DNA from: Candidatus Latescibacterota bacterium
Lineage (GTDB): Bacteria > Latescibacterota > UBA2968 > GCA-2709665
DNA: 64,000 nucleotides
Reading direction: 5' to 3'
Assembly (NCBI GenBank): GCA_965237675.1
Contig: OZ250150.1
Span: 5,472,001 to 5,536,000, forward strand
Part shown: positions 4,288 to 21,543 of the stretch, piece by piece
Numbering within the stretch: position 1 is the first letter of the stretch
Layout: every line of letters starts with the position of its first letter
Program-made: the position numbers and the translations under genes
The notes under the pieces: model-generated
Databases searched by the model: none
Told to the model about the DNA's origin: nothing
Seen by the model: the letters and a program-made list of their open reading frames with translations, nothing else

Positions 4288-4596
4288 TTGAACACCTGTG
4301 ATCCCTGCACATTTTCCAGTACATACGTCATTACTCCACCCTCTTCGCGGAACCATTGCATCAAAACGCCCACATCGGTTCCCACACAAAGGAATTCCAC
4401 TCCCATATCCAAATATCGCTTCGCGCCTTTGGCTTCCCCGAATTCCGCTCGAGTCGGTATTTCAATCGCATATTTTCCCGCTACTCGGACGTTATCCCTG
4501 CCATAGCCGGCCTTGATAGGCCGGTAATTAAAGAATAATCCGACGGGTCGATTTGTATCAATCGGTTCCCCCCTTCATCCGCCAGTCCATCTTTTT

Positions 4597-4624
4597 GTAA
4601 GGGCGACCGGCCGGTCGCCCCTAC
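4597..4624. repeat. GTAG-family REP palindrome (relatives near 607, 5366, 5435, 36190, 38286, 39127, 39225, 42424, 43949)
   Basis: GTA(A/G)GGGCGACCGGCCGGTCGCCCCTAC and GTAGGGGCAACCCTTGTGGTTGCCC variants. Confidence 0.75.
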
Positions 4625-4639
4625 AGATCCCGTGCGTAG

Positions 4640-5230
4640 GTAGGAAGTCAGCGTTTCATCGGAAGATCCGCGCCACGATTTCGCTGCCGGGTGCGCGCTG
4701 TATCTCCTCCGGTGTCCCGCACTGTACGATACGGCCGCCTTGCAGCACCGCGATCCGGTCTGCGACCGCCAGGGCATCTGAGACGTCTCGCGTGGCATAA
4801 ATCACCGTGCGGTGCCGTCGGGGGAATGAATGGTCAGGGAGGGGTTGTCCGCGTGCTCGGATAAATCGCCGGGAGGTTCGCGGTGGGATCCGTCCAGCGC
4901 CATGTTCGGAAACGCATAGCGCCGGATCCACACCCCCCGCCATCTTTCCGACCGCCACTCGGGCGGGAAAGCGTCGACACCCCCGGAGAAACGCCAACCG
5001 CGGATTATGCCGGGACTGGTCTCGTCTTCGTACCCATCCGAACCGATATGCACGCCGCCCTGCCGGTCCGAGCGTTTGCCGACGTATCGCAGCAGCGTCG
5101 TCTTGCCGGCGCCAGCCTCCCCGACGATCGCGACAATCTCCCCCGACCGTACAAAAAGCGTCAGCCCGTCGAGGACGGGCGTCTTTGTGCCTTTGTATCG
5201 AAAGGTGATATTGTCGAGGAAAACGAACAT
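4640..5230 (-). pseudogene. degraded ABC transporter ATP-binding protein
   Basis: Walker A GEAGAGKTTLLR and ALAVADRIAVLQGGRIVQCGTPEEI lie in different frames; middle missing. Confidence 0.75.
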
Positions 5231-5266
5231 TTCGGATAATCCATCAGGGTGGATATAACTTTCAGT

Positions 5267-5285
5267 TGTGGCAATTACTGCGAAA
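5267..5285. promoter_or_regulatory. putative WYL operator (degenerate)
   Basis: TGTGGCAATTACTGCGAAA, variant of TGTCGCA-N5-TGCGACA. Confidence 0.5.
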
Positions 5286-5693
5286 AAGAATGCAGCGATC
5301 AGTCGACAGCGGTCAGCCAAAAAACGCAAAGGCGATCTATTCACGTCAGCGCATCTAGAGAATCTGTAGGGGCAACCCTTGTGGTTGGCCAGGTCGCGGG
5401 TGACTGCATGCAGCGGGCAGCGACATCGGGTCTTGTAGGGGCGACCGGCCGGTCGCCCTCGTTACGATCGAGCAGCGGTAAACAGTCAGCGTAACGCAAT
5501 CAGTCAAACAATCGAGGTCCGCGGGCCGCAACGCGAATCACTTCGATTTCTTCCAGGCGGAACAAGCGTTCACAGCAGGCCAAAATATGTAACACCATGA
5601 CGTTGAGGGAACGCATGGCGAGAGAATCAGTTGACAACGCGCATCAAATCTCGTAGTAATATTGCAGGTAATCAACCGAAACGGAGGCTTCCG

Positions 5694-5948
5694 GTGAAAA
5701 CCGCTCTCGTTCAAATCGGGAATTCGCGCGGCATCCGTATCCCCACGGAGTTCCTGGAACAGTGCCAACTTCGAGACGTCGTGGAACTCGAACTTCGCGG
5801 GGGTCACTTAATCATCCGTCCGACTACCCAAACCCGAAGCGGTTGGGAAGACGCCTTTCGCAACATGCGCATACACCAGGACGATACGCTTCCTGATGAA
5901 ACATATCGGTCTGCTACAGAATGGGACACTACGCAGTGGGAATGGTAG
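5694..5948 (+). CDS. mazE: AbrB/MazE-family antitoxin
   Basis: VQIGNSRGIRIP motif; overlaps toxin start. Confidence 0.9.
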   Translation: MKTALVQIGNSRGIRIPTEFLEQCQLRDVVELELRGGHLIIRPTTQTRSGWEDAFRNMRIHQDDTLPDETYRSATEWDTTQWEW

Positions 5949-6265
5949 TTGCGCGTTTCGACGTCTGCCAGGTGGGGCTCGATCTTGCACAAGGGCGGGA
6001 GATTCAGAAAACGCGCCCTTGTGTTGTAATATCTCCCGATGAGATGAACAGGCATATCGGAACCGTCATCGTTGCCCCGCTGACTACAAAAGGTCGCGCC
6101 TATCCCACCCGTATCCCTCTCCGTTTTCAGAGAAAAAGCGGACAGATCGTGCTCGATCAGGTACGCACGGTTGACAAAACCCGCCTGGTACGTCGTCTGG
6201 AAAAATCAGCGACAAGGCTGCCCTCGAAGTCCTGGCCGTGCTGAGGGAGATGTTCGCGCGAGTAG
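5942..6265 (+). pseudogene. mazF: PemK/MazF toxin, frameshifted near the C-terminus
   Basis: GREIQKTRPCVVISPDEMN..LDQVRTVDK; tail KISDKAALEVLAVLREMFA is in another frame after about 6200. Confidence 0.85.
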
Positions 6266-6406
6266 GTTTTGCGCGTTCGAGGACCTTAACCAGCATATTT
6301 GCGACGCGGCGCGGCACGGGTATCCCCAGGGCGTTCCTGGAACCGTGCCAACTTCTTACAGTAAGCGGAAGTTGAACAGTCACTCAAACCGGAAGGGAGA
6401 ACCTGA

Positions 6407-6628
6407 ATGAACGCAGCAAGCGAATTGTCCGAACGGCAGGCCCGGCTTGAAGGCATCATTGAGCAAATGGACCGCCGCTTTGAGTCCATTGATCGCCGCC
6501 TGGATTCCATCGACCGCCGCCTTACGGGCATCGAGTCCAGCATGCGTCAGGGCTTTTTCTGGATCGTCGGCATTCAGATTACCACCCTCTTGACGCTTGG
6601 CGCGTTGATTCTCATCAAGCTCGGATAG
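6407..6628 (+). CDS. small coiled-coil, membrane-anchored protein
   Basis: Heptad SIDRR repeats plus C-terminal TM helix; GGAG RBS. Confidence 0.7.
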   Translation: MNAASELSERQARLEGIIEQMDRRFESIDRRLDSIDRRLTGIESSMRQGFFWIVGIQITTLLTLGALILIKLG

Positions 6629-6714
6629 CCACCCGCCTCCCGAAAGAACACCCAAGTGAACGCCATCGCCCACACAAACGCCGACATCACCAACCTGTCT
6701 AGCAGACAGCCAGA

Positions 6715-6734
6715 CCACCGAAGTGAGGGGAGAT
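6715..6734 (-). CRISPR. orphan half copy of the type I-C array repeat
   Basis: CCACCGAAGTGAGGGGAGAT, 20/20 identical to positions 18-37 of the array repeat. Confidence 0.85.
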
Positions 6735-6771
6735 GGGGACGGCTTTGCCGCGGTCCTTCACGACGCGGTAT

Positions 6772-6808
6772 GAGTCGGTCCTTGTTCTGATGGAAGATTC
6801 TCGACGTG
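6772..6808 (-). repeat. solitary CRISPR-like repeat (family B)
   Basis: gagtcggtccttgttctgatggaagattctcgacgtg. Confidence 0.85.
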
Positions 6809-6836
6809 TCCGCCTTCGATTGTTCATTTAAGCCTC

Positions 6837-7160
6837 TCATGGGATGCCTGCCGCTGCTCCAAACGCCTCTTGTGCTTCCCGTATCTTGACGTCCAACAAC
6901 GCCTCTTGTATCTCCTCTTGTATGTCCTGCTCCGCTTGCGTAAAGACATCGGCGGACCGCCGCCGGTAAACTTCCGTTCGGAATTCTTGGTTGTCCTCCC
7001 TGATCTTGTCTTGAAAAGCTTCCCGTACCGCCACTTCCATATCCGTCGCTATCGACGGGTTTTCTAGCACGGCATTCTTTACCGCCTGCTTCAGTATTTC
7101 TCGCGGTTCCCCTTTTTGTGCCCCAGCGTCCCACAACACCCGTACCGCCTGCTTCAGCAT
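6837..7160 (-). CDS. small helical hypothetical protein (cassette cargo)
   Basis: 107-aa ORF between two family-B repeats. Confidence 0.55.
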   Translation of the reverse strand: MLKQAVRVLWDAGAQKGEPREILKQAVKNAVLENPSIATDMEVAVREAFQDKIREDNQEFRTEVYRRRSADVFTQAEQDIQEEIQEALLDVKIREAQEAFGAAAGIP

Positions 7161-7198
7161 TTCTCACCTTGGATTGCTCATTTAAGCCCTCCCAGATG

Positions 7199-7235
7199 GT
7201 TTAAATCCTTGTTCTGATAGAAGATCTTCACCGGG
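7199..7235 (-). repeat. solitary CRISPR-like repeat (family B)
   Basis: gtttaaatccttgttctgatagaagatcttcaccggg. Confidence 0.85.
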
Positions 7236-7236
7236 A

Positions 7237-7424
7237 TTAGCGGCGGCACCTGGCGGTGCGTTTTTCAGCCGCTCGTTCGGCGTCGGCTTTGGCCCACAGG
7301 GCCAACTGGGACAAGGTAGGAACCGGCAGGCCGCCTTGTAGTCGGCAGGAGCAAACGGCGTCCCGTCGGGATGCCAGCCGCGGCCGAATATCTTCGTGTA
7401 CTTTTCTTTAGGTAGGGTAGGCAT
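7237..7424 (-). pseudogene. small WHxDGTPF-motif protein, probably frameshifted (paralog of 15018-15227)
   Basis: WHPDGTPFAPADYKAA; homologous tail LPVPTLSQLALWAKADAERAAE is in another frame ending TAA at 7239-7237. Confidence 0.6.
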
Positions 7425-7427
7425 AGA

Positions 7428-7464
7428 GATTCAATCCTTGTACTGATGGAAAATTCTCGCCGGG
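7428..7464 (-). repeat. solitary CRISPR-like repeat (family B)
   Basis: gattcaatccttgtactgatggaaaattctcgccggg. Confidence 0.85.
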
Positions 7465-7470
7465 TCTATC

Positions 7471-7560
7471 TCAATCGAACCAATCCCGGGGCGTAAAGTA
7501 TTTGATTCCAATAACCACCACAAGAATGACAGCAAGCAAGAGTATAAATCCCAAAATCAT
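7471..7560 (-). CDS. 29-aa single-TM microprotein (cassette cargo)
   Basis: MILGFILLLAVILVVVIGIKYFTPRDWFD; stop 6 nt before a repeat. Confidence 0.45.
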   Translation of the reverse strand: MILGFILLLAVILVVVIGIKYFTPRDWFD

Positions 7561-7572
7561 AGCGGCCCGTAT

Positions 7573-7732
7573 CAGCCCGTTGATAAAGTCCATCCGGGCT
7601 GCGTCCGGTCCTTGTGGCCGAAATACTGCGTTGCACTCCCTCTCCGAATCCCCGGATTCGACGCGGTCGCGCGCCTTGTCTTCGGCCACAATGACTCGGC
7701 CTCGCCTGCAGAGCGACTTTTTCAACGGACTG
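7573..7732. mobile_element. 160-bp MITE
   Basis: Terminal inverted repeats CAGCCCGTTGATAAAGTC / GACTTTTTCAACGGACTG; four copies in the window. Confidence 0.85.
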
Positions 7733-7749
7733 CTATATACTTGTTTTCC

Positions 7750-7785
7750 GTTTCAGTCCTTGTTCTGGGGAAGATTCCGAGCGGG
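7750..7785 (-). repeat. solitary CRISPR-like repeat (family B)
   Basis: gtttcagtccttgttctggggaagattccgagcggg. Confidence 0.8.
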
Positions 7786-7810
7786 ACTGTGGGTTGGGCC
7801 ACGGCCGCTT

Positions 7811-8362
7811 TTATTCATCTCCGCGGATCCTGGCCAGCGCCTCGCTCGCAGCATCTGCCATGAAATCCAGAGAGTCCTTAAGATTCTCGCGTATCCATTC
7901 GAGATACCTGACCGCCCGTTGCTCTCGAAACTCACCGAGTTGCCGGATGATCGTCTCCCCCAGACCGGTGCCCAAAGGGTATCGGTCTCTGGCCATGTGC
8001 TCGAAAACGCTCTCGAGCAGATTCAGCAGGTGTTGGCGAATTTCCTCCGAATCCGGTGAGGGTCTCCAGACGTAACGCGGGTTTTCCCAGGACACCCACT
8101 CGTCGGGTCGACCGGCTTGCACGCGCCGTTCCTGTTCCCAGCCGCCATGGCGCATCACCGGCCCGATCGGGATGCGATCGCGATCGGGCCGGCGATGTGG
8201 ATGGTTCGCACAATAGGTGTAGAAGGGATTCTCTATCGCGATGTCCCTGATCTCGCAATAGGGCGGTATGCTCTTGTCAGCGTGCCGCGACCAGTCGCGC
8301 TCGCCCTGGTTCGTTCGATTGAACCAACAGGTTCCGCAACAGTCGGATCCTCCGTTGGGCAT
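7811..8362 (-). CDS. hypothetical protein with Cys-rich N-terminus
   Basis: 183-aa ORF, CCGTCWFN..YCEIR..YCANH, GGAGG RBS. Confidence 0.75.
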   Translation of the reverse strand: MPNGGSDCCGTCWFNRTNQGERDWSRHADKSIPPYCEIRDIAIENPFYTYCANHPHRRPDRDRIPIGPVMRHGGWEQERRVQAGRPDEWVSWENPRYVWRPSPDSEEIRQHLLNLLESVFEHMARDRYPLGTGLGETIIRQLGEFREQRAVRYLEWIRENLKDSLDFMADAASEALARIRGDE

Positions 8363-8424
8363 CGCTCAGCCCTCCTCCCGGTTGAAACTCCGCAACATCT
8401 CCCACAACCCGTCATGTAGTAGCG

Positions 8425-8506
8425 CTCGCACCGTCACATCGTTCGGTCCAATTGGAATCCTCCGCCAGGCATAACATAAAGTCCATTTGTCGCAAGTATT
8501 GCGACA
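8425..8506 (-). promoter_or_regulatory. WYL-gene promoter remnant with operator TGTCGCAAGTATTGCGACA (8488-8506)
   Basis: Homologous to 37320-37396: operator, GGAGGATTCCAA RBS, decayed first codons. Confidence 0.7.
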
Positions 8507-8699
8507 ACATTAAAAAAGCTATCGGCTGTTAGCGTGCAGCCGTCAGCCAGAAACAGTGAGAAAAGGAACCGGTGTGAAGGTGGGGCGGACATTCCTGTCT
8601 GCCCTTATCATTGTCCTTCTGTCGCGATACAGACAGAAGCAAGGCTTGCGCCGTCCTCTTTCCAGTGGGGGAGACGGCGGCGAGTCGCGGCGTGCCCAG

Positions 8700-9260
8700 A
8701 CACAGGATTCTATCGGTCTGTGACGGGATCTCCGACCACGGTGATTACTACCGGGTCGGTACGTGGGAAGTGCTGGACTTCGCAGGCCGAGCACTGGCGT
8801 ACCTGACCGCCGCGCCTGGCAACCGTGGGCTGTCCGCATGCGGAGCAGAAGCCGTTGCGCACATGCCAATGAACGAGCGACCGCGCCTGGGCCAGGATGC
8901 CGGTTTCCCGACCCGCAAGCACGGTCCCGGCGTTGCGGCAATCCTCGAAACGCCAGTCCTGAGCGTCTGCTACCCGGCTGGCTGCCTCGGGGAAGGGAGA
9001 CAGGTCTACGGCGAAGTGCGCGACGCGTCCAATAGGCCGAGGAATATCGGCGCCGCGTCAGGCGTCAGGGTCCGGATACGCTGCGTGTTCAGCCAACCAA
9101 GCCGCGGAGGAAGGCGGTCGTGGATAAACTCCTCCAGGTTTCGGAAGGCCAGAAACCTGCTACCGGCGGCGCGTCCGGCGCGCTCAATCCAGGTTTCATC
9201 CCGACGTTCCCGTTCGCCACGGTCGAGGCGATTGCCGGAGAATGGATATGGAACTCTCAT
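8700..9260 (-). pseudogene. nudC: NAD(+) diphosphatase NudC remnant
   Basis: FSGNRLDR N-terminus; ARSLVHWH..FCSACG..RQCSAC..HFPRTDPVVIT; broken frames, Nudix box missing. Confidence 0.8.
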
Positions 9261-9359
9261 CGTTTGGGGTTACCGAAGGAGGAAAGCGGAAGGGAGGCGA
9301 GGGTCTATCCAGCCCATAGACGGCGCGAGTTCACGTCCAACTCCCGCGGCGCGACCGCT

Positions 9360-9995
9360 CGAGAACAGCGATGATGCGGCCTATTGTGCCGACGGCTTTT
9401 TCAGGCAACCCAGTGTGCACATCTTTCGGAAATTATGCAAATCCGCACGCAACGCCAACGTGGAACCCGCGGTGGAAGCATGGGCGCGCTATTTCCTGGA
9501 AACTGGACACTTTCCATGAACAAAGGGCAGAAAGCGACGAGGGGAACCCAATGACAAGCGGCCATTGCAGGCAACCGGATTCCATGGAGAGATTCGCCCT
9601 TTAGAGGGTCCGCCAACGGACACGTTGATCGAAATAGCCATTGCAGGATAATTTACAGACATTGTTTTGAAATGGTAGGATCAGGAAACGACCCGCGCAG
9701 ACTATAGATGGGACCAGACCCCCGTCTTGTCACTTGAAATCGCCGAAATGTCTAAGGAAGAAGATCCGTATCGCGCCATAGAGATCTGAGAAATGATGGC
9801 CGAGTCTGCGAGCAGCCGCGTTGAAGATATCGGATACCGGGAAGCCGTCGATTAACTCCGCAAAGTCCGAGACACCTTTAGACATCTCAACGTCGAGGAC
9901 GATTTGAGCGCATCGAGAGTCGGAAACAAAATAAAATCGCGTTGTGTGGAAGTACCCGATGTTCTGGCAGGCAAGCGTTTTATCGATAGTGCATC
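9360..9995 (+). pseudogene. decayed C-terminus of a helical protein resembling SWIM zinc-finger family proteins
   Basis: FFRQPS..YFLETGHFP and EDPYRAIEI*..YREAVD*LRKVR with internal stops; family recognised from memory. Confidence 0.45.
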
Positions 9996-10262
9996 GGTTA
10001 TGCATGAACGATAGTCGGAATTTTCATTTTGTCCGGGTACCTATCCAATCCGACATGCACGTCACCCTGTCGATCCGAACGTCTGTCAACGAAACGCGGC
10101 AGCAAATGGTTGTGACCGCCAAACCCATTGCCGATGCTGACTTTACTCCAGGTCGGCAATGCCGCGTGCCGGGGCGTAGCAGGATTGCGCCGAGCGCCGT
10201 GTATCTGACTAAGATGGGGGCGAAGTTCCTGTGAGCCCCGGCCATGGCGTACCACTACCTGC

Positions 10263-13100
10263 TCACCTGAACAGCCCCGAGTACTTAAAGGTCATAATGT
10301 AGTCCTGCGAACCCTGCTTCCTGGCCAAGGGTCGATTGTCGTAAATGTCCCATCCCAAACCGAAGAGAAACTGATCCTTGAAAAAAGAAACGGCCACGCC
10401 CAGAGAAATGGCCAGCGATTTTTTGGTTGAAAGGGCTTCGAGGACGTTGCCGATAACGGTCAGATGGATGCCGGAAATCGACGGGTTATCCACGTTGTGC
10501 CAGCCGGCAAAAGCGAGTCCGGGCAGGCCAAGCAGGCGCTCAGTTCTGCCTTGGACCGCTTTGCCATCGGCGTCTGTATAATCGCGCCCAGGGCGAATCG
10601 TCAAAAAGGAAATCAGCGGCTTGGCCTCAAACTCCCACTTCCAGCCCCCGGCTTCCAGAATCTGCGATACGCTCTGAGACTCCGCACCCGGGTGACTTCG
10701 GGTTGTGATTCTGAGTCGCACTCGGCGATTGTCGTCTTCTGACAGCTGCAAATTGAGATCCTCGGCTAAGACCCGCCCGCCGCTCGATTCGTTGATTCTA
10801 ACCTTCAGCTTTCGGTTACTGCTATTGCCTTTGGGGGCGTAGTTTTCGTCAAGCCGCGTCCACTCGACGACCATCTCGCGACCGATTAGCGCCCGCCGCA
10901 GCGAGTCGGGAATCGCAAAGGACACATCCACTTTGGTGCCGTCTTTTTGCACGACGGGGACATTGTTCCAACTAACGGCCAAGGGTTGGGTCTTCTCGCC
11001 GCGGGTGACCCGGACCTCGACAATCTGCGCCAAGTCGATGTCTGCGAGTACCCCGTGCCCCTTGTATTCGAGCGGACGGGCGCGATCCTTGACGTTGTTG
11101 CTGACCAATAAAACGCGCCCTCGGCGATCGCCTAAAGCATCGGGCGCAAAAAAGAGCGTGACGTCCGCTGACTTGCCCGCGGCCAGCGCGAATTGCGCCG
11201 GTGCAACATGGGCTTCGTTGTTTAGGGGATGCGCCTCAACTCGCAGCACGGTATCGCCGACGTTGGTGACCACGAAGGTCCTTTCCGCCTGCTCTCCCAA
11301 GACCGCATAGCCAAAATCAATGATGCCCTCCGGATTCAACTCGATTTCCGCGGCCACGCCGTGGCCCTTGAGCAAGATGTCGAGCGCCAATTTCTCATTC
11401 GCGCCCCAGCCGTCCAAGCGCAAGGTCCCCGAAATCGCTCCACGGGTCGACGGGCTGAAGGTTACGTCTAGCGGCAAGGTGTGCTGGCTGTGGGCCGGCA
11501 GCAAGAACCTACTGTCGGCGTCGATTGAGGTGTGGGCTGTAAACTGGGCGCTCGTCGAGCGAAGCTGGTAAATCTCAAAATCGGCGTTGCCCACATTGGC
11601 TATTTCGACGACTCGGCTGCTGCTTTCGCCGACGGCAACGCGGCCGAAGTCTACGGTTGCCGGGCTGAGGGCAAAAAATCGGCCTACACCCTGCAAGTGC
11701 ACGGTCTGACGCTCGGCTTCGGCCTCGACATGGAGAATGGCTTTGTGAGTACCGGATTCCTTGGGCGAGAAACTCAGCGCCACCTGCGCGCTGGCTCCGG
11801 GCTGAATGAGGACGGAGTGCTGCGCGAGATCAAATTCAACGCCCTCGTCCGCGACTACAGAGACCTGCACCACGCCCGGCCGGCCACCCTTGTTCCACAA
11901 TAGCAAATGGCTGCGCGCGCTCCCGCCGATAGGCACGCTGCCGAAGTCAATGTCGCCATTAATGATCTCGATGCGCGGTGGTCTGATTTGGCCCCGACCC
12001 GCGAGGGGGATGGCGACGTTAGCAGCTTGCGGATCGTTGGTGTACAGGCGCAGGATGCCGCTTTGGTCGCCTTCGCTCTGCGGCACAAACGCTGCGCTCA
12101 GATCAAGTCGTCCCTCGGGAGCAATGGTCGCCGACGAGTCTCCTATTCCAAGGGTAAATGCTGCACCCTCGATGGCGACGTTTTCAACATGCAACTCGGC
12201 TTGGCCCTGATTGAGAACGGTCACGTGGCGCGTTAGGCGCTGACCCATTTCGACGGAGCCAAAATCGAGGCCCACTTGCGGGAGGGGAGAAAAAGCCGCT
12301 TGCGGTACCAAACCGCTCCCCTGCATGGGAATGGACCAATCCCCAAAGTCGGGTGCGGTGACGACGAATTCAGTCGCGACTAGCCCCGCGCCCGTCGGTG
12401 CAAACGCAACGTCTATCCGCGTTTCACCGCCGGGAGCGGGCCAAGGGCCGACATCGCCCTCAACGCTAAAGGGGCCTTGTAGGTCGGCTACTTCCATCTG
12501 CCCAACCGCCACGGGCACGGTTCCAGTATTTCTGAAGATAACAACCGCCATCGCCACTTGCCCGACGGGAACCGCGCCAAAATCCAGCCCCTCGGCTGGC
12601 AAAAGCACCAAGGTCGGAACGACGGCTGCCGCTTGGAGCGGCACGACTAAGCGCTGGTCTATGAACAAGGCGGCTACCTGCAACGTCAGTTCGCCCGAAT
12701 ACTCCCCAGCCGCAGTTGCGCTGAATCTCACTTCGACGCTACTGACGCCCTTGCCGTCCAAGCGCAGCGTATCTGAGAACGCGCGAAAGCCGTCGCCGCT
12801 AATACCGACGATCATCTCAAGCGCGTCGTCTTGCAGATTTTCTATGGAAACGGACGCCCGCGTCTCCACGCCGACGCCGACTACACCCAAGTCAAGCGCA
12901 TCTGGGTCAATGGCGAGGGGTTGCGCGCGCAGAAACACTGGCAGGCACAGGAGGGCGAGCAGAAGAACAAAAGAAAAGCAGACAACCCACCAGAATTTCG
13001 AACTCCATGGTTGTCGGAGATTCACGTCGCAGAGGTGCCGAAGATGACGCCTGACGTATTCTTTGCGCCGATTCATGTGACCCTCGTTTCGTCCATACAT
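10263..13100 (-). CDS. surface protein with tandem Ig-like (choice-of-anchor D / ASPM-SPD2-Hydin-like) domains
   Basis: About six LDFGxVxVG...N.G...F.P...G...G.L repeats; signal peptide. Confidence 0.8.
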   Translation of the reverse strand: MYGRNEGHMNRRKEYVRRHLRHLCDVNLRQPWSSKFWWVVCFSFVLLLALLCLPVFLRAQPLAIDPDALDLGVVGVGVETRASVSIENLQDDALEMIVGISGDGFRAFSDTLRLDGKGVSSVEVRFSATAAGEYSGELTLQVAALFIDQRLVVPLQAAAVVPTLVLLPAEGLDFGAVPVGQVAMAVVIFRNTGTVPVAVGQMEVADLQGPFSVEGDVGPWPAPGGETRIDVAFAPTGAGLVATEFVVTAPDFGDWSIPMQGSGLVPQAAFSPLPQVGLDFGSVEMGQRLTRHVTVLNQGQAELHVENVAIEGAAFTLGIGDSSATIAPEGRLDLSAAFVPQSEGDQSGILRLYTNDPQAANVAIPLAGRGQIRPPRIEIINGDIDFGSVPIGGSARSHLLLWNKGGRPGVVQVSVVADEGVEFDLAQHSVLIQPGASAQVALSFSPKESGTHKAILHVEAEAERQTVHLQGVGRFFALSPATVDFGRVAVGESSSRVVEIANVGNADFEIYQLRSTSAQFTAHTSIDADSRFLLPAHSQHTLPLDVTFSPSTRGAISGTLRLDGWGANEKLALDILLKGHGVAAEIELNPEGIIDFGYAVLGEQAERTFVVTNVGDTVLRVEAHPLNNEAHVAPAQFALAAGKSADVTLFFAPDALGDRRGRVLLVSNNVKDRARPLEYKGHGVLADIDLAQIVEVRVTRGEKTQPLAVSWNNVPVVQKDGTKVDVSFAIPDSLRRALIGREMVVEWTRLDENYAPKGNSSNRKLKVRINESSGGRVLAEDLNLQLSEDDNRRVRLRITTRSHPGAESQSVSQILEAGGWKWEFEAKPLISFLTIRPGRDYTDADGKAVQGRTERLLGLPGLAFAGWHNVDNPSISGIHLTVIGNVLEALSTKKSLAISLGVAVSFFKDQFLFGLGWDIYDNRPLARKQGSQDYIMTFKYSGLFR

Positions 13101-13339
13101 ACGTTCAAATTACCCACCGTGTATTGTGTAGAAGATCAGTTACAAGGCCCAGACGAGCCGAGGATAGCGGTTCGAACTATGACCAGCCGGTACGTGTTGG
13201 CCAACGAGGACGTCGGCAAACAGCTATTCGGCACGTCGACACACGCCTCCGCGTCGATAAGAATATACAGAGGAAAACGCGGGATTCAATCCCGACCTGG
13301 AATATTCACTGTTGTTGAACCGAATAATAGTTGAATCTA

Positions 13340-14975
13340 GGAGTCTGCGCCGCAGGAAAATTCATTTCAATGGACAGGTAAAGGTAGGTATAATGGGTCG
13401 TGTAGTTCGGAAATGTCAAGCAGTAAAGAGGTTGTGAGTTGTGTCAACGGAGGGAGCTATCGATGCCGACGACCTTTCGTGCGTATCACCCGGACCAGAT
13501 ATTGCTGTTGGCGCCTGATCTTCGGGAGTGGGTGCCTGAAGGGCATCTGTCGCACCAGGTGAGCGATCTGGTGGATTCACTGGATCTGGGGTCGTTCTAC
13601 GCGCCGTATGAAGGCGATGGGCGTCGCAACGCGCCTTATGAGCCATCGATGATGTTGAAGGTATTGATATATGGGTACGCGACGGGTGTGTATTCGTCTC
13701 GTGGGATCGCGCGGAAGCTGGAGGAGGACGTGGCGTTTCGTATGTTGGCGGCAGGCAATTTTCCACAACACCGGACGATCTGCGAGTTTCGTCGTCGTCA
13801 CCTAAAAGATTTCGGGCGTTTGTTCGTGGAGGTGGTTCGTGTGGCGCGGGAGATGGGTCTGGTACGTTTCGGGACGCTATCTTTGGACGGCACGAAGGTA
13901 CGAGCGAAGGCGAGCAAGCGCAAGGCCATGAGTTACGGGCGGATGTTGAAGGAACAGGCTCGTCTGGAGAAAGAGATCGGGGCGTTGCTGGCGGGGGCTG
14001 TGTCGATTGATGCCGAGGAGGACGCGCGTTACGGCGCGGATGTTCGTGGCGACGAGTTACCGGTCGAGTTGCAGCGCAGGCAGGTTCGTCTGGCGGCGAT
14101 CAGGGCGGCTCGGGAGCGTCTAAAAGCATCGCAACGAGCCGTCGACGATGCGCGCGGTCGCAAGCCCGGTCAGAAGTGCAACCCGAAGGGCGGGCGGCCA
14201 TACAAAAGGGCCTATGGCGAGCCCGACCCGAAGGCGCAGAGCAACTTCACGGACCCCCAGTCTCGGATCATGAAGACGAGCGCGGAGGGGTTCCAGCAGT
14301 GCTACAACGCCCAGACGGTGGTGGACGCCGAGCGTCAGATCATCGTGGCTGCGCATCTGGGGTCAGCGGCCACCGATCAGGGCTTTATGCTCCCTTTGCT
14401 GGATGGGGTGCAAGAGACATTCGGGGTCAAGCCGGCGGTGGTTCTGGCGGACGCGGGATACTGCAACGAGGAGGACCTGGCCACGCTTGAGGAACGTGGC
14501 ATCGACGGTCACGTGGCGCTGGGGCGGGAGGGCAGGGAAGGGGTGGACGTCGATTCGGAGACGCTTCCAGCGACGCATCGCATGGGCGAAAAACTGGCGA
14601 GCCCGGAAGGTCGGGGCCTGTATGCGATGCGCAAGTGGCTCTCCGAGGCGCCGAACGGATGGATCAAGGAGATACTGGGCTTCCGGCGCTTCAGCTTCCG
14701 GGGTCTGGAAAAGGTGCGGGGCGAGTGGGACCTGGTCTGCCTGGCGTTGAACGCCAAGCGGATGGCAGCGTTGACGATGTGTTGAGGCATGAGTTCGGGC
14801 GTCCTGTGCTTGTGGACTCGACATACGGGAAGCCACGATCCCTAATATCTCGTCCTCAACACGCCTGACTGCCACGATGCCCCCGCCCGAAACTCATCAT
14901 CCCACTCCCAACATAACACCGAACCCAACACAGACACATCTCGCCCTTTGCAAAAACTCCTGCGGCGCAGACTCC
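13340..14975 (+). mobile_element. IS1182-family insertion sequence
   Basis: 18-bp perfect TIR GGAGTCTGCGCCGCAGGA (13340-13357 / 14958-14975). Confidence 0.9.
13463..14785 (+). CDS. IS1182-family transposase
   Basis: G..PYEPSMMLKVLIYGYATGVYSSR, LDGTK, NFTDPQSRIMK, LADAGY, GFRRFSFRGL. Confidence 0.95.
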   Translation: MPTTFRAYHPDQILLLAPDLREWVPEGHLSHQVSDLVDSLDLGSFYAPYEGDGRRNAPYEPSMMLKVLIYGYATGVYSSRGIARKLEEDVAFRMLAAGNFPQHRTICEFRRRHLKDFGRLFVEVVRVAREMGLVRFGTLSLDGTKVRAKASKRKAMSYGRMLKEQARLEKEIGALLAGAVSIDAEEDARYGADVRGDELPVELQRRQVRLAAIRAARERLKASQRAVDDARGRKPGQKCNPKGGRPYKRAYGEPDPKAQSNFTDPQSRIMKTSAEGFQQCYNAQTVVDAERQIIVAAHLGSAATDQGFMLPLLDGVQETFGVKPAVVLADAGYCNEEDLATLEERGIDGHVALGREGREGVDVDSETLPATHRMGEKLASPEGRGLYAMRKWLSEAPNGWIKEILGFRRFSFRGLEKVRGEWDLVCLALNAKRMAALTMC

Positions 14976-15014
14976 CAGGGCAATATGAGCATTCACTGGG
15001 AACCCTACTTAAGC

Positions 15015-15051
15015 GTTTCAATCCTTGTTCTGGTGGAAGACGTTCGACGAT
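15015..15051 (-). repeat. solitary CRISPR-like repeat (family B)
   Basis: gtttcaatccttgttctggtggaagacgttcgacgat. Confidence 0.85.
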
Positions 15052-15227
15052 TCGGCCGCACGCTCAGCGTCGGCACGGGCCCACAGGGCCAATTTGGACA
15101 GGGTGGGGACAGGCAGGCAGGCCGCCTTGTAGTCAGCAGGTGAGAACGGCGTGCCGTCCTCGTGCCAGGCGGGGCCGTTAAAAGTGTCTGCCATCTTGTT
15201 GGGTTTGTTGGGCGTGTCGATAGTCAT
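15018..15227 (-). CDS. small WHxDGTPF-motif protein whose 3' end reads into the repeat
   Basis: WHEDGTPFSPADYKAACLPVPTLSKLALWARADAERAAE; GGAG RBS. Confidence 0.6.
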   Translation of the reverse strand: MTIDTPNKPNKMADTFNGPAWHEDGTPFSPADYKAACLPVPTLSKLALWARADAERAAESSNVFHQNKD

Positions 15228-15338
15228 CGTTCAGGTCTCCCATATAGTCCCACCGGATATCCCCAACGTGGTCCCCCGGCAGGTTTTCGCGAAAAGCCTC
15301 AATGGACCGCTCGCCACCCGGCAACTTCTGGGCGTCGG

Positions 15339-15375
15339 GTTTCGATCCTTGTTCTGGTGGATCTACATTTGCGGG
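15339..15375 (-). repeat. solitary CRISPR-like repeat (family B)
   Basis: gtttcgatccttgttctggtggatctacatttgcggg. Confidence 0.75.
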
Positions 15376-15548
15376 CGCTCAGGACCGCCACCACTGTCCC
15401 GATCTGGACAATAACCGCCTTGCAGCACCGCGACCCGGTCCGCGACCGCCAGGGCGTCGCAGACGTCTCGCGCGGCCCAAATCATCGTGCGGCACCGCAG
15501 TTTTGTACGTCGTGCGAAGAGATCGCGCGGATAAATATAGATTCGTGG

Positions 15549-15567
15549 TGTCGCAATTACTGCGACA
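15549..15567. promoter_or_regulatory. putative WYL operator
   Basis: TGTCGCAATTACTGCGACA palindrome. Confidence 0.65.
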
Positions 15568-15899
15568 AAAAGCAGCTTTCAGCAATCAGCCGACAGCAGT
15601 CAGCCAATAACGAAAAGGCGATCTATTCACGTCAGCGCATTTGGAGTATCTCCAGGGGCATCCCTTTCGGTTGCCCAAGTCGCGTCGAGTAACAGGCCAC
15701 AGGAGGCAATTGGGGGTTCCGTCGGGAGACCCCGCGGGGCGTCATCGTTTTTGTCGATCAGAGGGCATCAGTCGAGATAAGGAAGCGTCGTGTAACCGTA
15801 CGCCCAAATCGCCAACCGGCGGCGCTCGATGATTTTGGCTCTCTTCTCTCGAACCTCCTCATCGAGTAAATAAACGCAGGCAGACACGGGAACTCTATA

Positions 15900-15936
15900 G
15901 AGTAAATCGTTGTTCTGATGGAAGTTCTCATTGGGC
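15900..15936 (-). repeat. solitary CRISPR-like repeat (family B, degenerate)
   Basis: gagtaaatcgttgttctgatggaagttctc. Confidence 0.7.
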
Positions 15937-16174
15937 GAAGAGCCCTTTTGGGACTCGCGCCAGCGTCGGAACTCGTACTGCTTGGTGAAGACCAGCACTT
16001 CGGTTGCCGCCAGCAGGCCGTGCAGGGTCGCATAGAGGCACTCGGAAAAGCGGATCCGAAGGACGCTATGCTACTGATTTTGGCGACTATGTTAAAAACA
16101 ACGCGATCGAATTTCACCCGAGGCAAAAATGTCCAGAGGCAGTACCGGAATTTTTCGCAAACCCCTTGCTGCGT

Positions 16175-17929
16175 CTACGATGTTCCCCGGTCGCTCCGAT
16201 TCGTACTAAGCAGCCCTCGCAGCCTGTGATGCAGACGGTCGCGACGGGCTTCGTAGAACGCGTTGAACCCTGTGATTTCCGTTGGGATCTCACCCAAGTC
16301 ATTTCGAGAGACGAAATCGCTCGCCGCTTCGGAATCATAGGTATTAGCGATCCACTCGTGCGGCAACCTATCGCGCTTGCTTTCGTTGGCCTCCCCGGTG
16401 AGCAACTGCAGATTGGGGAGGCGGTTGACACGGTCGAGGTACTCCGGGATGTGGTCTTCAGCCACTCCGACCTGGCGTAGACGCCCACGCGTGAACCGGC
16501 TCTTCGGAAACACGTGATCGATATGGAACCTGTTGCTTTGCACATCCACGAAGGGGTATAAGACGGACAGTAGCGCGAACGTACGGTCCTTCGACTCCAC
16601 GAGATCCTCTATTTCTTCTTCCTCGAATGCCAGGCTCTTGCCGCGCACCCGCATCCCAGCTTCCAGTTTCGCCGACGGGAATGCCTCTGCGCCATGTGTA
16701 TCGATCAGGCTCCTGAGCGAGGTGAGCAGGGTGTCCAGACCGCTGCCCCAAATCCCTCGCTTGAGCAGTGATCGCAATAGCCAATCTCGGATATCATCTC
16801 GATCCTGGCGGTACAACGATTGAGACAAGAATCCCGTGGGTGTATCCTTGCAATACAGGTAGTGAGCAATGGGCAGAACTGCGTAGTTTGCGCTTAGACT
16901 GGCCTGGGAAAAACCAAACCTTGCCACCAATTCCACGGCTGTGCGTACTGCGCGCGTTATCGGGTCCCAGTTCTCTTCAAGGAGCTTCATGTTGTTCCGA
17001 TTGAAATTGGTCGCCCTGAAACGAACGTTCGCGACCCCTGCAAGCATAAGGCCTGCTTTGAGCAGGAAGTCCTGAGTGAACGCGAAGCCCGTCCCGATGC
17101 GGTTTATTTCGTCCACCGTGCCGTGTATTGCCTCGCGGGCATCCAGTTTCTCCCACTGTGCGGTGGCCATACTCATCAGCATGTCTGAATAGCTCAGCGT
17201 CGTACCACCACTGTTGGTACGGATAAAGATGTCAAGAACCTTGTCTATATTTTGGTCAGGTTCCTCGTAGTGCGCGATAACCGGATCCGTGTGCACAACC
17301 TTTTGTAGCTTCCCTAGGACGTTGCCTGGGCGGCGTTCATTGCCAAGTTGTCTGTTCACGAGAATTTCGTTGAGATCCTGCCACTCCTCAACCTGTAGGA
17401 TCTCGCCAACGGGGTACCAGCAGTGCGTTTCGTCCCGCCGTTCGGCCTCTTCGCTGGTCAGAAATCGAAAATCGTACTGCATGTTTTGCTCGTTCTCCTC
17501 CGCGTCCGCGAGAAGATTCAGGTATAGTTTCCGCTTTGGAAATGCGTCTGGGTTGTTCCACCATAGACGCGGCAGTTTGTAGGCGTAGGTACCCCGTAGC
17601 CCGATGTTCAAACCCGTTAGTCGTTGCTGGCCGTCGAGCACTGCGGTAACTTCATCTCGGGTGAGGGCTCCTATTGGATCGCAATGGGGGTTATCTCTCT
17701 CGTGATAGTTAAGCATTAAGTCGTAGAACTTGTACTTAGCGATGCTCTCTCGTTCGACGATCCAGAACAGGAACGACCCAATCGGGTACCCGCGCATCAG
17801 GCTGTCGAAGAGACATTGGATCTGTTCAGGCCGCCACACGAATTCCCGCTGAATCGCAGGAAGCACATACTGCCTACCTTCAATAGCCCCGAGGGCCTTG
17901 CTGATCGTGATAGGAGTCTGGAATCCCAT
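16175..17929 (-). CDS. GmrSD-like DUF262 + C-terminal HNH (DUF1524-like) restriction endonuclease
   Basis: LPAIQREFVW, LFDSLMRGYPIG, LDGQQRLT, FIRTNSGG, HIDHVFPK..NLQLL..N..K. Confidence 0.9.
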   Translation of the reverse strand: MGFQTPITISKALGAIEGRQYVLPAIQREFVWRPEQIQCLFDSLMRGYPIGSFLFWIVERESIAKYKFYDLMLNYHERDNPHCDPIGALTRDEVTAVLDGQQRLTGLNIGLRGTYAYKLPRLWWNNPDAFPKRKLYLNLLADAEENEQNMQYDFRFLTSEEAERRDETHCWYPVGEILQVEEWQDLNEILVNRQLGNERRPGNVLGKLQKVVHTDPVIAHYEEPDQNIDKVLDIFIRTNSGGTTLSYSDMLMSMATAQWEKLDAREAIHGTVDEINRIGTGFAFTQDFLLKAGLMLAGVANVRFRATNFNRNNMKLLEENWDPITRAVRTAVELVARFGFSQASLSANYAVLPIAHYLYCKDTPTGFLSQSLYRQDRDDIRDWLLRSLLKRGIWGSGLDTLLTSLRSLIDTHGAEAFPSAKLEAGMRVRGKSLAFEEEEIEDLVESKDRTFALLSVLYPFVDVQSNRFHIDHVFPKSRFTRGRLRQVGVAEDHIPEYLDRVNRLPNLQLLTGEANESKRDRLPHEWIANTYDSEAASDFVSRNDLGEIPTEITGFNAFYEARRDRLHHRLRGLLSTNRSDRGTS

Positions 17930-18641
17930 CAGTGAAAACCTCCTTCGAATCGGGTTTACAGCGGCGACAACGGAAAGTGCTAATACACGCACCACCGGTG
18001 GGTACGGGTGCGCCGTCTGGATTCTATGCCATGGACTTTGCGGCTAGGGCCAAAAGCCGGTACCGTGAGCGTTAATCTCCTTCTGGGCCTTGGCGGAGAC
18101 TCTGCGTCGCTTGTACGCGTTTCCTGGTAGCCTCGTAGACCTTCATTCGAAGAAAGCAAGGGGTGCCGAGATTGCTATGGTGCCCGATGTGCCACTGCCT
18201 GCGCCTATGCAGGAACCACATGAATGGATTGACTGTGACCGCCGAGCATTTCTGGGGGTATTCGCACACTCAGGGTTCGCGGTCCAAGTGTATGTTGCCG
18301 CGCAACAGGTGTGGGCTCAACATGCCGATGGACGCGTACGCAGTCGCTTGCACGGTACTGGGTACAGCGGTTGGTGGTACTTGTGGTCCGTCAATTCAGG
18401 GTCAAGATTGATGTTCCAGCGTGCCAGTCCAAAGATGCGCCCGAATAGGCTTTTGAGCCACCGGGTACAGAACGTGGTGCGATGCGAGAGTTGGTGCACC
18501 GCATCTATTGCACAAGTACCTCTCGGTAGATCCGCGACCGTTTCCGGTCCAACTTGACCGAGGTATAGGAGACAAATTCATTCGACTCGACAATATGACA
18601 ACGTGCAGAGCAAACGTCGCCTGATCGTCGGGTTCGTTCAC

Positions 18642-18670
18642 GTTTCGATTCCGGTTCCTGTGGAAAATGC
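18642..18670 (-). repeat. degenerate solitary CRISPR-like repeat (family B)
   Basis: gtttcgattccggttcctgtggaaaatgc, 20/29 matches to the consensus by eye. Confidence 0.45.
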
Positions 18671-18727
18671 ACTGCGGATTGTCGTGCGTACACAACGCAC
18701 CTCGGCCATTCGGTCTCTTGGCGCTGC

Positions 18728-19642
18728 TTAAGCAACCTCGAACAGGTAGCGCACCCACTTGTTTGCGACGTCGGAGATGCCATCCACGTCAATTACGAAT
18801 TCCTGCCCTGGGCCTTCCGAGGTGACATGGATCCACGGCGCGGCGCGCCGCCGCATTTTGACTTTACGCTTAAGGCGCCTGCAACCGTCGGCTGGCCAGA
18901 ACCATTCAGGCAGTCTCCAGTGTGAGCATCGGGATGATGCTCCCTTTTCAACTTCCTCCGGCTCGGTCAAGATGATACGGCAGTCTTCGTTCTGAAATAC
19001 GCCGCCTCCGGGTGCGTCGGTTCCAGCGATACTGAGCTTCGGAGTCGAAACGTAGACCGTGTTGTTCATCGGCCTCCGAGGATTGTCGCCCGGTTCCCGG
19101 AATGATCCGTTCAGATGTGGGTGGTCCGATAGCCACGGATACTTGCCCAGAGCGCGGTCGTAGTCCGCAACTGTATGAAGTGCCAAAACTTCATGTACCT
19201 GAAGCCAACCGAAAATCAGATGGACTCTCGGTGCGGTTCTGACGAAACACCAACCGCCGCTGCCATCTTCCTCGACCCGCCGGAACGTTCCGAAGAACAG
19301 GAAAAGGTCACCCTGACAGACGCCCTGATTGGCCAGGTGGGTTTGAGATTCATCTACCAGTCCGAATGCTGGCCGCCATCCGGATTGCCGTGGGATCGCT
19401 TCGTCTCGAAGGTCTGGATCCAGGTGGCACCAACAGTCTTGCCTAACTTTACTCAGGCACTCCACAATCGGCGCGAGCGAGCGACCAACCCACAGAACAT
19501 CGCTAAACCGTTTCGAAGATTGAGGATAACGCTGGGGCGTCGGAATAGGGAGGGAGAGGATTCTCCCGTCTGGGAAAATCGGGCTATGGCTCTTTCCAGT
19601 TTTCGAGTCGAATCCCTTGCGGCTGAGCACGATTCTCTTCAT
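18728..19642 (-). CDS. Nucleotide modification associated domain 3 (Nmad3) protein
   Basis: MKRIVLSRKGFDS..SPIFPDG..SLPIP, CHLDPDL, GDLFLFFG, GPGQEFV. Confidence 0.8.
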   Translation of the reverse strand: MKRIVLSRKGFDSKTGKSHSPIFPDGRILSLPIPTPQRYPQSSKRFSDVLWVGRSLAPIVECLSKVRQDCWCHLDPDLRDEAIPRQSGWRPAFGLVDESQTHLANQGVCQGDLFLFFGTFRRVEEDGSGGWCFVRTAPRVHLIFGWLQVHEVLALHTVADYDRALGKYPWLSDHPHLNGSFREPGDNPRRPMNNTVYVSTPKLSIAGTDAPGGGVFQNEDCRIILTEPEEVEKGASSRCSHWRLPEWFWPADGCRRLKRKVKMRRRAAPWIHVTSEGPGQEFVIDVDGISDVANKWVRYLFEVA

Positions 19643-19645
19643 CGG

Positions 19646-21190: not shown

Positions 21191-21194
21191 GATG

Positions 21195-21512: not shown

Positions 21513-21543
21513 TGCGTCGGCTCCGTCGTGAAATACGAGGATT

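Follow-up and report, generated by a model that had tools for sequence, protein, structure and literature searches.

A probable type I-B CRISPR array remnant filled with genes in a Latescibacterota genome, and a conserved coupling between repeat end and start codon

[quoted passage not shown] Here we describe a cluster of four such repeats, separated by small genes, in a stretch of 64,000 nucleotides (nt) from a Candidatus Latescibacterota bacterium (assembly GCA_965237675.1, contig OZ250150.1, positions 5,472,001 to 5,536,000 of the forward strand), which in its full length is called the window and to which all unprefixed coordinates refer. The cluster is probably the gene-filled remnant of a type I-B array, and in it and its counterparts in related genomes the repeat end is coupled to the start codon of a small protein family with the motif WHxDGTP, hereafter the WH family; the window's own cluster is partly decayed. 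A CRISPR repeat has long been kept directly before the start of a conserved microprotein, and at the borders of defence genes, even where the matching cas genes are missing. The locus also flags two uncharacterised families, the WHxDGTP microproteins and a widespread, cysteine-rich protein of 183 amino acids (aa).

The closest described counterparts are the orphan arrays and standalone repeat units of Shmakov et al. 2023 (PMC10120712), which, in the available part of that account, are likewise repeats outside an array, partly degraded, close to a CRISPR-cas locus and conserved in relatives. Here, by comparison, whole genes (0.2-7.6 kb) rather than spacer-sized pseudo-spacers lie between the copies, the genome has no cognate cas genes, the start codons of a protein family lie 2-5 nt past the repeat, and no partial promoter target was found. 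The CreTA and CRISPR-supervised systems, as far as the accessible portions of the two reports describe them (bioRxiv 2024.12.27.630466; PMC10120712), have in common with this locus degenerate repeats by I-B or I-C loci amid defence genes (here GmrSD/HEC-05 and Nmad3, and ZacA in relatives), together with the general idea of CRISPR machinery controlling neighbouring genes. In those systems, crlRNA mini-arrays repress a toxin or defence promoter through a pseudo-spacer match of about 16 nt with a protospacer adjacent motif (same sources). In contrast, no promoter match was found here and the repeat abuts the start codon, so that control, if any, would operate at the level of RNA or translation. 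The only possible counterpart of the two repeats around a pseudo-spacer in a crlRNA or CreA mini-array is repeat R6772 with the 37 nt and the 20-nt type I-C fragment that follow it (Table 1), and the handle of R6772 is degenerate.

Two further comparisons concern what lies between the repeats. Mobile DNA in CRISPR arrays, such as insertion sequences (IS) and an S. pyogenes prophage (bioRxiv 2020.10.09.333658, in the portion available), also produces kilobase inserts flanked by intact repeats, and the live array of a relative, G010, is interrupted by IS-bearing inserts of 1.6 kb and 5.5 kb; the WH, Nmad3 and ZacA units differ from these in carrying no transposase or integrase and in being conserved with their repeat junctions across species. 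In C. difficile, type I toxin-antitoxin genes lie by I-B arrays (Maikova et al. 2018, PMC5961336, available part), and the parallel is a tiny hydrophobic peptide gene, here a putative one in a 29-aa open reading frame (ORF), situated in a defence island next to I-B repeats. The two are unrelated in sequence, the 29-aa ORF is known, among the loci examined, only from this genome and one close relative, and no antisense RNA partner was seen, none having been looked for. The literature searched, supplementary files excluded, contained no account of protein genes that start at CRISPR repeats or of cassettes between them.

The window lies in genome G000 (5.6 Mb, 99.9% complete), and its repeats are numbered by their window start in a 37-nt register and read on the minus strand. 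All four cluster repeats are present where the sequence-only reading had placed them, and they are no chance matches. A 20-mer of the repeat, allowing at most three mismatches, matches seven times in the window against 0.00 expected from 100 shuffles, and these seven are all the matches in the 5.6-Mb genome. An nhmmer profile run over the whole genome recovered exactly 10 copies at E<0.002, all within window positions 6772-21580 and on a single strand, the next match having an E value of 0.2. The start-to-start spacings of these 10 copies are 427, 229, 322, 7265, 324, 561, 2742, 1005 and 1897 nt. The minus-strand consensus ends in ...CTTCCATCAGAACAAGGATTGAAAC, and the four cluster repeats are identical to the array repeat of G010 at 22-30 of 37 positions. 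The repeat's 3' end, ATTGAAAC, which is the 8-nt 5' tag of the CRISPR RNA, is exact in two of the 10 copies (R15015 and R21544), one base off in R7428, R7750, R15339 and R18642, two off in R7199, and more degenerate in R6772, R15900 and R19647.

Read on the minus strand from 8542 to 6715, the cluster consists of a terminator-like hairpin, a promoter, the 183-aa gene, R7750, a 164-nt insert, the 29-aa ORF, R7428, the WH gene, R7199, a 107-aa ORF, R6772, 37 nt, and 20 nt of a type I-C repeat. The 183-aa gene stops 24 nt before R7750, and the 107-aa ORF opens 38 nt past R7199 and ends 28 nt short of R6772. The tighter junctions pointed out in the sequence-only reading were recovered to the nucleotide: the 29-aa ORF stops 6 nt ahead of R7428, the ATG of the WHxDGTPF gene (7424-7422) lies 3 nt past R7428 with AAGGA ending 10 nt upstream of it, and the homology-supported WH frame stops at a TAA (7237-7239) 1 nt ahead of R7199.

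The origin of these repeats is evident from related genomes. A 22-mer of the repeat (CCATCAGAACAAGGATTGAAAC, at most three mismatches) is present in 29 of 53 genomes of the order, and arrays of the I-B repeat with a period of 72-77 nt occur in G008, G010, G014, G019, G021 and many genomes of genus g11, which belongs to a second family. Perfect 22-mers are found in the arrays of G008, G010 and G014, and locus L010 holds 30 repeats. The G010 array adjoins cas4-cas2-cas1-cas3-cas5-cas7-cas8b-cas6b (Pfam assignments), the same order as that given for canonical type I-B loci in the available part of PMC5965381; this is the relative's locus, not one of the window genome. Cas6b_C was detected in 14 of the 53 genomes, which are the holders of long arrays with the exception of G019. 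It was not found in G000, Cas6_C was not found in any of five genomes searched, G000 among them, and the only Cas1 gene of G000 belongs to a type I-C locus. That locus lies in the window, with an array of about 38 repeats (23000-25700) beside cas2 (25919-26134), cas1, cas4, cas7/csd2 and csd1, and its repeat differs from the I-B repeat, the two having only GGATTGAAAC in common. Given the identity of the repeat in relatives, and with no cas6b and a lone I-C Cas1 in G000, the cluster repeats are worn copies of a type I-B CRISPR repeat whose cognate system has been lost from this genome.

In G000 these copies do not form a functional array, as the intervals between them are not spacer-sized (about 30-40 nt) and there are no cognate processing or effector genes. 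The sole spacer-sized interval follows R6772, where 37 nt lead into a truncated I-C repeat, and this stretch appears to be a relic repeat-spacer-repeat junction between the I-B and I-C repeat types. Elsewhere in the genome the 37 nt (6735-6771) are matched over 15 nt at most, and they have no seed match in the window. A fused I-C/I-B repeat also stands before Nmad3 in G011.

Arrays elsewhere in these genomes show other histories. The close relative G019 holds an array of 76 fully homogeneous repeats of a variant I-B type (5' part CCGGTCGAAACA), running from L020 16456 to L021 2055 (G019:C5, about 3031456-3037055) between a full and a truncated copy of a DUF4432 gene; cas6b was not found in this 95%-complete assembly, so that the array is apparently orphan yet uniform. 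The I-C arrays of G000, G019 and G009 (23000-25700; L021 3047-4487; L012 15540-17790) have zero spacers in common with flanks 72-98% identical, which suggests fast spacer turnover.

The gene that follows R7428 belongs to a family of 58-63 aa proteins with the pattern W-H-x-D-G-T-P-[FY]..D-Y..A-G.P-V-P-T..Q-L-A-x-W-A. By tblastn and profile search, WH genes were found in 12 of 14 other genomes of the genus and in one of two sister-genus genomes, and the two WH-less genomes of the genus are also without the repeat. None was found in the 31 genomes of the second family f2, which includes genus g11, though many of these have the same repeat and cas6b. A collection of 5.8 billion proteins holds 44 members, none of them named or in Pfam. 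A profile search of 1.84 billion representatives gave 58 matches, the long multi-stretch ones among them probably being unrelated repeat proteins, and two proteins (451 and 464 aa) carry the WH motif before a helix-turn-helix (HTH)-like end whose Pfam matches fall below cut-off. A metagenome scan yielded one true relative, with a degenerate repeat after it. The family is a real gene under purifying selection, with a median ratio of nonsynonymous to synonymous substitution rates (dN/dS) of 0.18 over 62 pairs; between WH paralogues synonymous sites are saturated (median dS 1.38). Its AlphaFold model is confident (predicted local distance difference test, pLDDT, 84) and has a short hairpin at WHPDGTP together with two helices, one short and one long, the long one C-terminal; it had no match in PDB (best Foldseek E 4.2, best VIA Z 3.7), so that no fold was assigned.

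The coupling of this family to the repeat is the central observation. In 23 of 35 WH copies (11 of 14 genomes), 2-5 nt lie between the end of the repeat core and an in-frame ATG, and tandem WH units recur with a period of 217-229 nt. The sequence-only reading had proposed to check whether WHxDGTPF homologues are repeat-flanked in other genomes, and the answer is positive, with a repeat directly at the start or the stop in 30 of 35 copies from 14 genomes and at both ends in 12. In repeat-preceded copies, AAGGA lies 9-12 nt upstream of the ATG, and, since only 2-5 nt separate repeat and ATG, the repeat's AAGGA is the sole room for a Shine-Dalgarno sequence. The 3' end of the 16S rRNA is canonical (...CACCUCCUUUC, the anti-Shine-Dalgarno). 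The earlier claim that the repeat supplies the only Shine-Dalgarno-like sequence thus holds as geometry across the family, and the ribosome would be expected to use AAGGA as its docking site.

A stringent count over dispersed repeats points the same way: of 77 such repeats, 25 are followed after 0-10 nt by the start of an ATG-initiated ORF of at least 50 aa, as against 5.7% of random positions, most of these ORFs being WH paralogues and so not independent of one another. A looser test (any start codon, within 35 nt, at least 50 aa) gave 45 of 77 repeats against 43% of random positions, and as it is non-discriminating in such GC-rich DNA, the stricter one was used instead. Genes of further families likewise open close behind a repeat: the distance is 10 nt for Nmad3 (G000 and G001) and 6-10 nt for ZacA/DUF6361 (G009, G016 and G015).

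An arrangement of a similar kind is seen in the I-C locus, where the I-C repeat's 3' part recurs as a 17-nt copy (GGAGAGCGGATTGAAAC) directly at the cas2 start, between cas1 and cas2 (26117-26150), with the likely TTG start of cas2 falling within GGATTGAAAC, and G019 has the same arrangement (L021 6631-6659). This may be a second instance in which translation starts at the 3' end of a repeat, or else a standalone regulatory repeat inside the cas operon.

The same geometry raises the prospect of control by the I-B machinery itself. Cas6b cuts 8 nt from the repeat 3' end (PMC5965381, available part), and with a cut predicted inside AAGGA, between AAGG and AUUGAAAC, a WH transcript would lose its Shine-Dalgarno in I-B-positive cells. 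A Cas6b-gated module can be built on this, in which cleavage between AAGG and ATTGAAAC severs the WH frame from its sole Shine-Dalgarno, or Cascade occupies the 5' tag, so that WH production is confined to conditions in which Cas6b or Cascade is missing or blocked and would act, much as in CreTA and the CRISPR-supervised systems, as a sensor of CRISPR failure or a back-up for it; in G000 the switch would be permanently "on" and partly decayed. In favour of such a gate are the fixed repeat-to-ATG gap (2-5 nt in 23 of 35 copies), the conservation of the entire 3' 25 nt of the repeat, beyond AAGGA, and the position of WH units downstream of the array and on its strand in the cas6b-positive genomes G010 and G014. 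CRISPR-repressed toxins and defence systems beside I-B and I-C loci are moreover known (PMC10120712; bioRxiv 2024.12.27.630466, parts available). However, many genomes that have no cas6b (G009, G011, G013, G015, G016 and G018 among them) keep an intact WH gene that is under purifying selection, and WH is therefore not a toxin that needs Cas6b for tolerance; it is also absent from genus g11 despite the same repeat and cas6b there. A search of the 36 nt after each of 15 dispersed repeats (10 in G000, five in G010) for a promoter-like partial target, requiring at least 12 of 14 seed positions within 30-40 kb, gave 0 hits. We consider a Cas6b gate unlikely on this balance; were WH translation indeed gated by Cas6b cleavage, CRISPR status and gene expression would be linked in a new way. 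Regulatory pseudo-spacers were considered separately and set aside, as no seed-type partial matches were found.

The WH copy after R7428 in the window is itself interrupted. A frameshift in a short GCC/TGCC run makes the profile search split it into two frames, and the identical frame break is present in G019 (95-98% identical here), so that it is inherited rather than a sequencing error; this copy, at 7424, is probably a pseudogene. The second WH paralogue of the window, located among the other repeat copies, is intact.

Taken together, the account that we favour, with moderate confidence, is that the cluster is the tail of a type I-B array that has decayed, been reshuffled by recombination between repeats, and had its repeat 3' end reused as a translation start region. 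It would represent the trailer end of the array, downstream of the live type I-C locus, in which normal 37-nt spacers were replaced over time by genes. The likeliest route would be repeat-repeat recombination, that is, unequal crossing-over with loss or gain of one-gene, one-repeat units, in some cases involving an I-B and an I-C repeat through the common GGATTGAAAC, leaving same-strand small genes divided by repeat copies. The repeats would no longer guide immunity in G000, and their conserved 3' part (CTTCCATCAGAACAAGGATTGAAAC) would serve as intergenic sequence and, for the WH family, as a 5' untranslated region with AAGGA as Shine-Dalgarno.

Differences between relatives at the level of whole units speak for this account. 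In G019, 19 nt, a WH gene and an I-B repeat stand directly after the last I-C repeat, and at the corresponding site of G000 the I-C repeat runs straight into the upstream region of DUF4432. Window positions 8712-21542 are replaced in G019 by a different 5.5 kb and are absent between DUF4432 and the 183-aa gene in G010. Downstream of their own arrays, relatives have a similar zone in which different genes separate the repeats (ZacA/DUF6361 and EEP-family nucleases among them), and the order 183-aa gene, repeat, WH is also found in G008, G010, G006 and G015. In the window the genes between the 10 copies are mostly on the same strand and comprise a DUF2752 protein, an OmdA-domain protein, Nmad3, a GmrSD-type enzyme (PADLOC HEC-05) and the second WH gene; next toward the cluster come an other-strand IS, a 945-aa Ig-repeat protein and a NudC fragment. 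From the unit differences between relatives, the tandem WH units and the hybrid repeats, all of them end states, we infer that homologous recombination between repeats was the engine.

This pattern also bears on the integron-like arrangement that the sequence-only reading had drawn from the precise, gene-sized units. Integron cassettes, with their attC sites, IntI integrase and Pc promoter, are indeed alike in their compact, same-orientation, promoterless-looking units, recurring short site, single promoter and gain or loss of units, and an integron-like platform would use the repeats as sites at which a dedicated recombinase moves promoterless cassettes behind an upstream promoter. Here, too, the genes lie on the strand of the repeats and are tightly bounded by them, units are present or absent between close relatives, and a single strong promoter stands upstream. 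But the five Phage_integrase matches of the genome all lie outside the window, the nearest at C1:5369057, about 103 kb away, and the sole transposase in the stretch is that of an ordinary DDE IS on the other strand. The repeat, moreover, is a bona fide CRISPR repeat in which no inverted-repeat pairs mapped within any copy, so that it has no attC-like internal symmetry, and recombination was probably homologous between 37-nt repeats. With no integrase in the window and no attC-like structure, this is not an integron, and we regard an integron-like cassette platform as very improbable. What stands of the earlier claim is the cassette-like form and the gain and loss of whole units between close relatives; the integron mechanism is not supported. 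The 29-aa and 107-aa units could not be upheld as recurring cassettes either, as besides G000 only G019 has them (among the loci fetched for the 29-aa unit, and among 53 genomes for the 107-aa unit).

Exact junctions between repeat and insert could also be produced by spacer acquisition, if Cas1-Cas2 had integrated long stretches of DNA where leader and repeat meet, with duplication of the repeat, so that each gene would be an oversized spacer, and the WH period (about 219 nt) does equal three normal 73-nt array units. Integrases are known to measure spacer length, however, the WH units bear no internal repeat traces at the expected offsets, and the long interruptions in the homogeneous arrays examined are IS elements only, which makes gene-sized spacers extremely unlikely. 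The related idea that the WH gene was born de novo from three array units was rejected, as a 25-nt core slid along 13 WH units produced no peak at offsets 49 and 123 (mean 0.25, maximum 0.38, the maximum being reached only at the next unit's repeat).

Several observations count against decay and recombination as a sufficient account. Across 77 dispersed copies from several genomes, cas6b-negative ones included, the 3' 25 nt are still 82-93% identical to the array repeat, and with synonymous sites of WH paralogues saturated, a relic alone fails to account for this preservation, which points to ongoing selection or gene conversion. What keeps the repeats could be their use as translation start regions, gene conversion, or a Cas6b-tied function in those lineages that retain Cas6b. 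Twelve of the 35 WH copies have no repeat before the start, among them the window's intact copy, which has its own GGGAGA. At the indel, G000 and G019 diverge in the bases that directly follow the repeat, so that excision was either not perfectly clean or is old. No recombination intermediates or circular units were seen, the mechanism being read from end states. The 29-aa and 107-aa ORFs have the support of just one close relative and four metagenome contigs, and contigs assembled from RNA libraries barely cover the 183-aa gene, leaving transcription of the cluster as one unit to be inferred.

The proteins of the cluster are small and of no known family, and each stands beside a repeat mimic, as would be expected if a mobile element had left an anti-CRISPR island here, in which the repeats are decoys for Cas6b or Cascade resembling RNA anti-CRISPRs (Racrs), and the WH, 29-aa and 107-aa products are protein anti-CRISPRs. 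Racrs are solitary repeat units and often lie near acr genes (PMC10651486, available part). Yet no WH match was found in 50,697 phage or 72,556 plasmid records, and IMG/VR viral contigs contain neither a WH relative nor an exact 22-mer of the repeat. None of 224 spacers from the arrays of six genomes targets WH or the other units, only 17-nt chance matches being obtained otherwise, and the locus is chromosomal, syntenic across the genus and situated beside the array itself. We therefore find an anti-CRISPR island highly unlikely.

Should array decay with reuse of the repeats be correct, and the repeat act only as a ribosome-binding region and recombination joint, then array tails can seed defence islands and small genes. 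A further-reaching form, which we hold to be doubtful but conceivable, is that CRISPR repeats have been reused both as the joints of a gene-shuffling platform without a dedicated recombinase, on which one-gene, one-repeat units in the array tail would be duplicated, lost and swapped to build a defence island, and as a hard-wired WH translation start that reports Cas6b or Cascade status. With its Shine-Dalgarno lying across the Cas6b cleavage site, WH would then be a translation-level, protein-coding counterpart of the CreTA and crlRNA circuits.

The label "WYL-type promoter" given in the sequence-only reading is correct, as 85 nt upstream of the 183-aa gene (8422-8506) are 78% identical to the fronts of two HTH-WYL-WCX regulator genes (36373-37341 and 40354-41325). 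This copy takes in the palindrome (TTGTCGCAA-N4-TTGCGACA), GGAGGA and the regulator's first codons, with the regulator ATG changed to TTG, a remnant of a dead ribosome-binding site and start. On this homology, the cluster is most likely read from a captured, WYL-controlled promoter, and the 183-aa gene through R6772 would form one transcription unit, which the terminator-like site just upstream would insulate from upstream transcription. In PADLOC, such regulators are recognised by the CRISPR-associated WYL models. Contigs from four metatranscriptome runs (contigs only) cover 6781-7000 and 7380-7553 with few differences; such contigs are short, of low depth and may contain DNA, they give no strand, starts or ends, and the parts they leave uncovered are uninformative. 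Contig breaks near 6815-6825 may be assembly effects. No Rfam family reached its gathering score in the window, and neither Pfam nor PADLOC matched the 183-aa, WH, 29/84-aa or 107-aa products.

The two HTH-WYL-WCX genes are near-identical and lie in duplicated segments (300-nt blocks 96-99% identical). The palindrome occurs in five copies over the window, including 5253-5287 and 15535-15569, which suggests one WYL regulon across the defence island.

The 183-aa gene has 1402 homologues, none of them assigned to Pfam, and this large, unnamed family keeps an N-terminal MPNGGSDCCGTCWFN without variation, together with further conserved cysteine and histidine residues. Its members come from many phyla, including Chloroflexota, Acidobacteriota, Gammaproteobacteria and Rhodothermales, largely from metagenome-assembled genomes, and at 70 loci outside the genus (L037-L106) none had a WH gene, repeat, palindrome or WYL gene nearby. 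Its structural model has a pLDDT of 69, below 50 in the cysteine-rich N-terminal half, and the C-terminal half returned only alpha-repeat (HEAT-like) structural matches with E 0.17 or worse.

The 29-aa and 107-aa ORFs are possible genes. The former was seen in the window and in G019 only, among loci fetched (no genome-wide search was made). The 107-aa ORF is acidic and flanked by a 22-nt direct repeat (7167-7188, 6813-6834); its 5' end contains a tandem duplication of 63 nt (7080-7165) that is absent in G019. It was found in two of 53 genomes, G000 and the 95-98% identical G019, and among 5.8 billion proteins it has five matches, down to 69% identity.

The 164-nt insertion belongs to a dispersed, structured repeat resembling a miniature inverted-repeat transposable element (MITE) of about 163 nt, with 54 blastn hits in the genome, 35 of at least 120 nt, on both strands and up to 96% identical. 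It is predicted to fold as one long hairpin (minimum free energy -87 kcal/mol) and has very deep RNA-library contig cover. As it is missing at the orthologous site in G019, its insertion appears recent relative to that genome. Further copies in the window are found at 37529-37691, 41666-41828 and 2653-2761.

Table 1. Features of the repeat cluster and of the further repeat copies in the window (strand as annotated; a dot denotes no strand).
Feature	Position	Strand	Remark
Terminator-like hairpin and T-run (candidate)	8523-8542	-	Just upstream of the promoter; consensus scan only
WYL-type promoter/operator copy	8422-8506 (palindrome 8474-8508)	-	78% identical to 37312-37396 and 41296-41380
183-aa gene	7811-8362	-	First of the unit
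R7750	7750-7786	-	Degenerate type I-B CRISPR repeat, one base shorter than canonical
164-nt insertion, dispersed structured repeat (MITE-like)	7569-7732	.	Between R7750 and 29-aa ORF; missing at the orthologous site of G019
29-aa hydrophobic ORF (MILGFILLLAVILVVVIGIKYFTPRDWFD; MILGF...)	7471-7560	-	Putative coding
R7428	7428-7464	-	Type I-B repeat copy; AAGGA 10 nt before WH ATG
WHxDGTPF microgene, frameshifted	7182-7424	-	N-terminal frame from 7424; C-terminal part in other frame (7237-7314)
R7199	7199-7235	-	Type I-B repeat copy
107-aa acidic ORF	6837-7160	-	
R6772	6772-6808	-	Type I-B repeat copy, degenerate 3' end
Spacer-sized stretch of 37 nt (6735-6771) and first 20 nt of I-C repeat (6715-6734)	6715-6771	-	
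R15015	15015-15051	-	Type I-B repeat copy; encodes last 11 codons and stop of second WH gene
Second WH paralogue, 69 aa (MTIDTPNKPNKMADTF..WHEDGTPF..)	15018-15227	-	Intact; own GGGAGA
R15339	15339-15375	-	Type I-B repeat copy
R15900	15900-15936	-	Degenerate type I-B repeat copy
R18642	18642-18678	-	Degenerate type I-B repeat copy, between Nmad3 and GmrSD (HEC-05) genes
R19647	19647-19683	-	Degenerate repeat 10 nt before Nmad3 ATG; same junction in G001
R21544	21544-21580	-	Best-preserved copy (34/37 identical to G010 array repeat), after DUF4432 gene

Finally, several features around the cluster were recorded. Just upstream of its promoter, on the minus strand (8710-8922), lies a 70-aa fragment with only the zinc-ribbon domain of NADH pyrophosphatase (truncated nudC-like). 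Just beyond R6772 are a MazF/PemK-type toxin gene (5921-6244, plus strand) and, at 6407-6628 on the plus strand, a coiled-coil ORF of 73 aa that contains three tandem repeats of 21 nt and ends in a hydrophobic tail, RNA-library contigs covering 6400-6728. Further families of short, GC-rich, palindromic dispersed repeats (e.g. GGGGCGACCGGCCGGTCGCCCC) are present at 4592-4644, 5430-5482, 38277-38329, 39220-39272 and other positions, together with CAGC-rich tracts, and a 142-nt perfect tandem duplication is located at 59461-59744.

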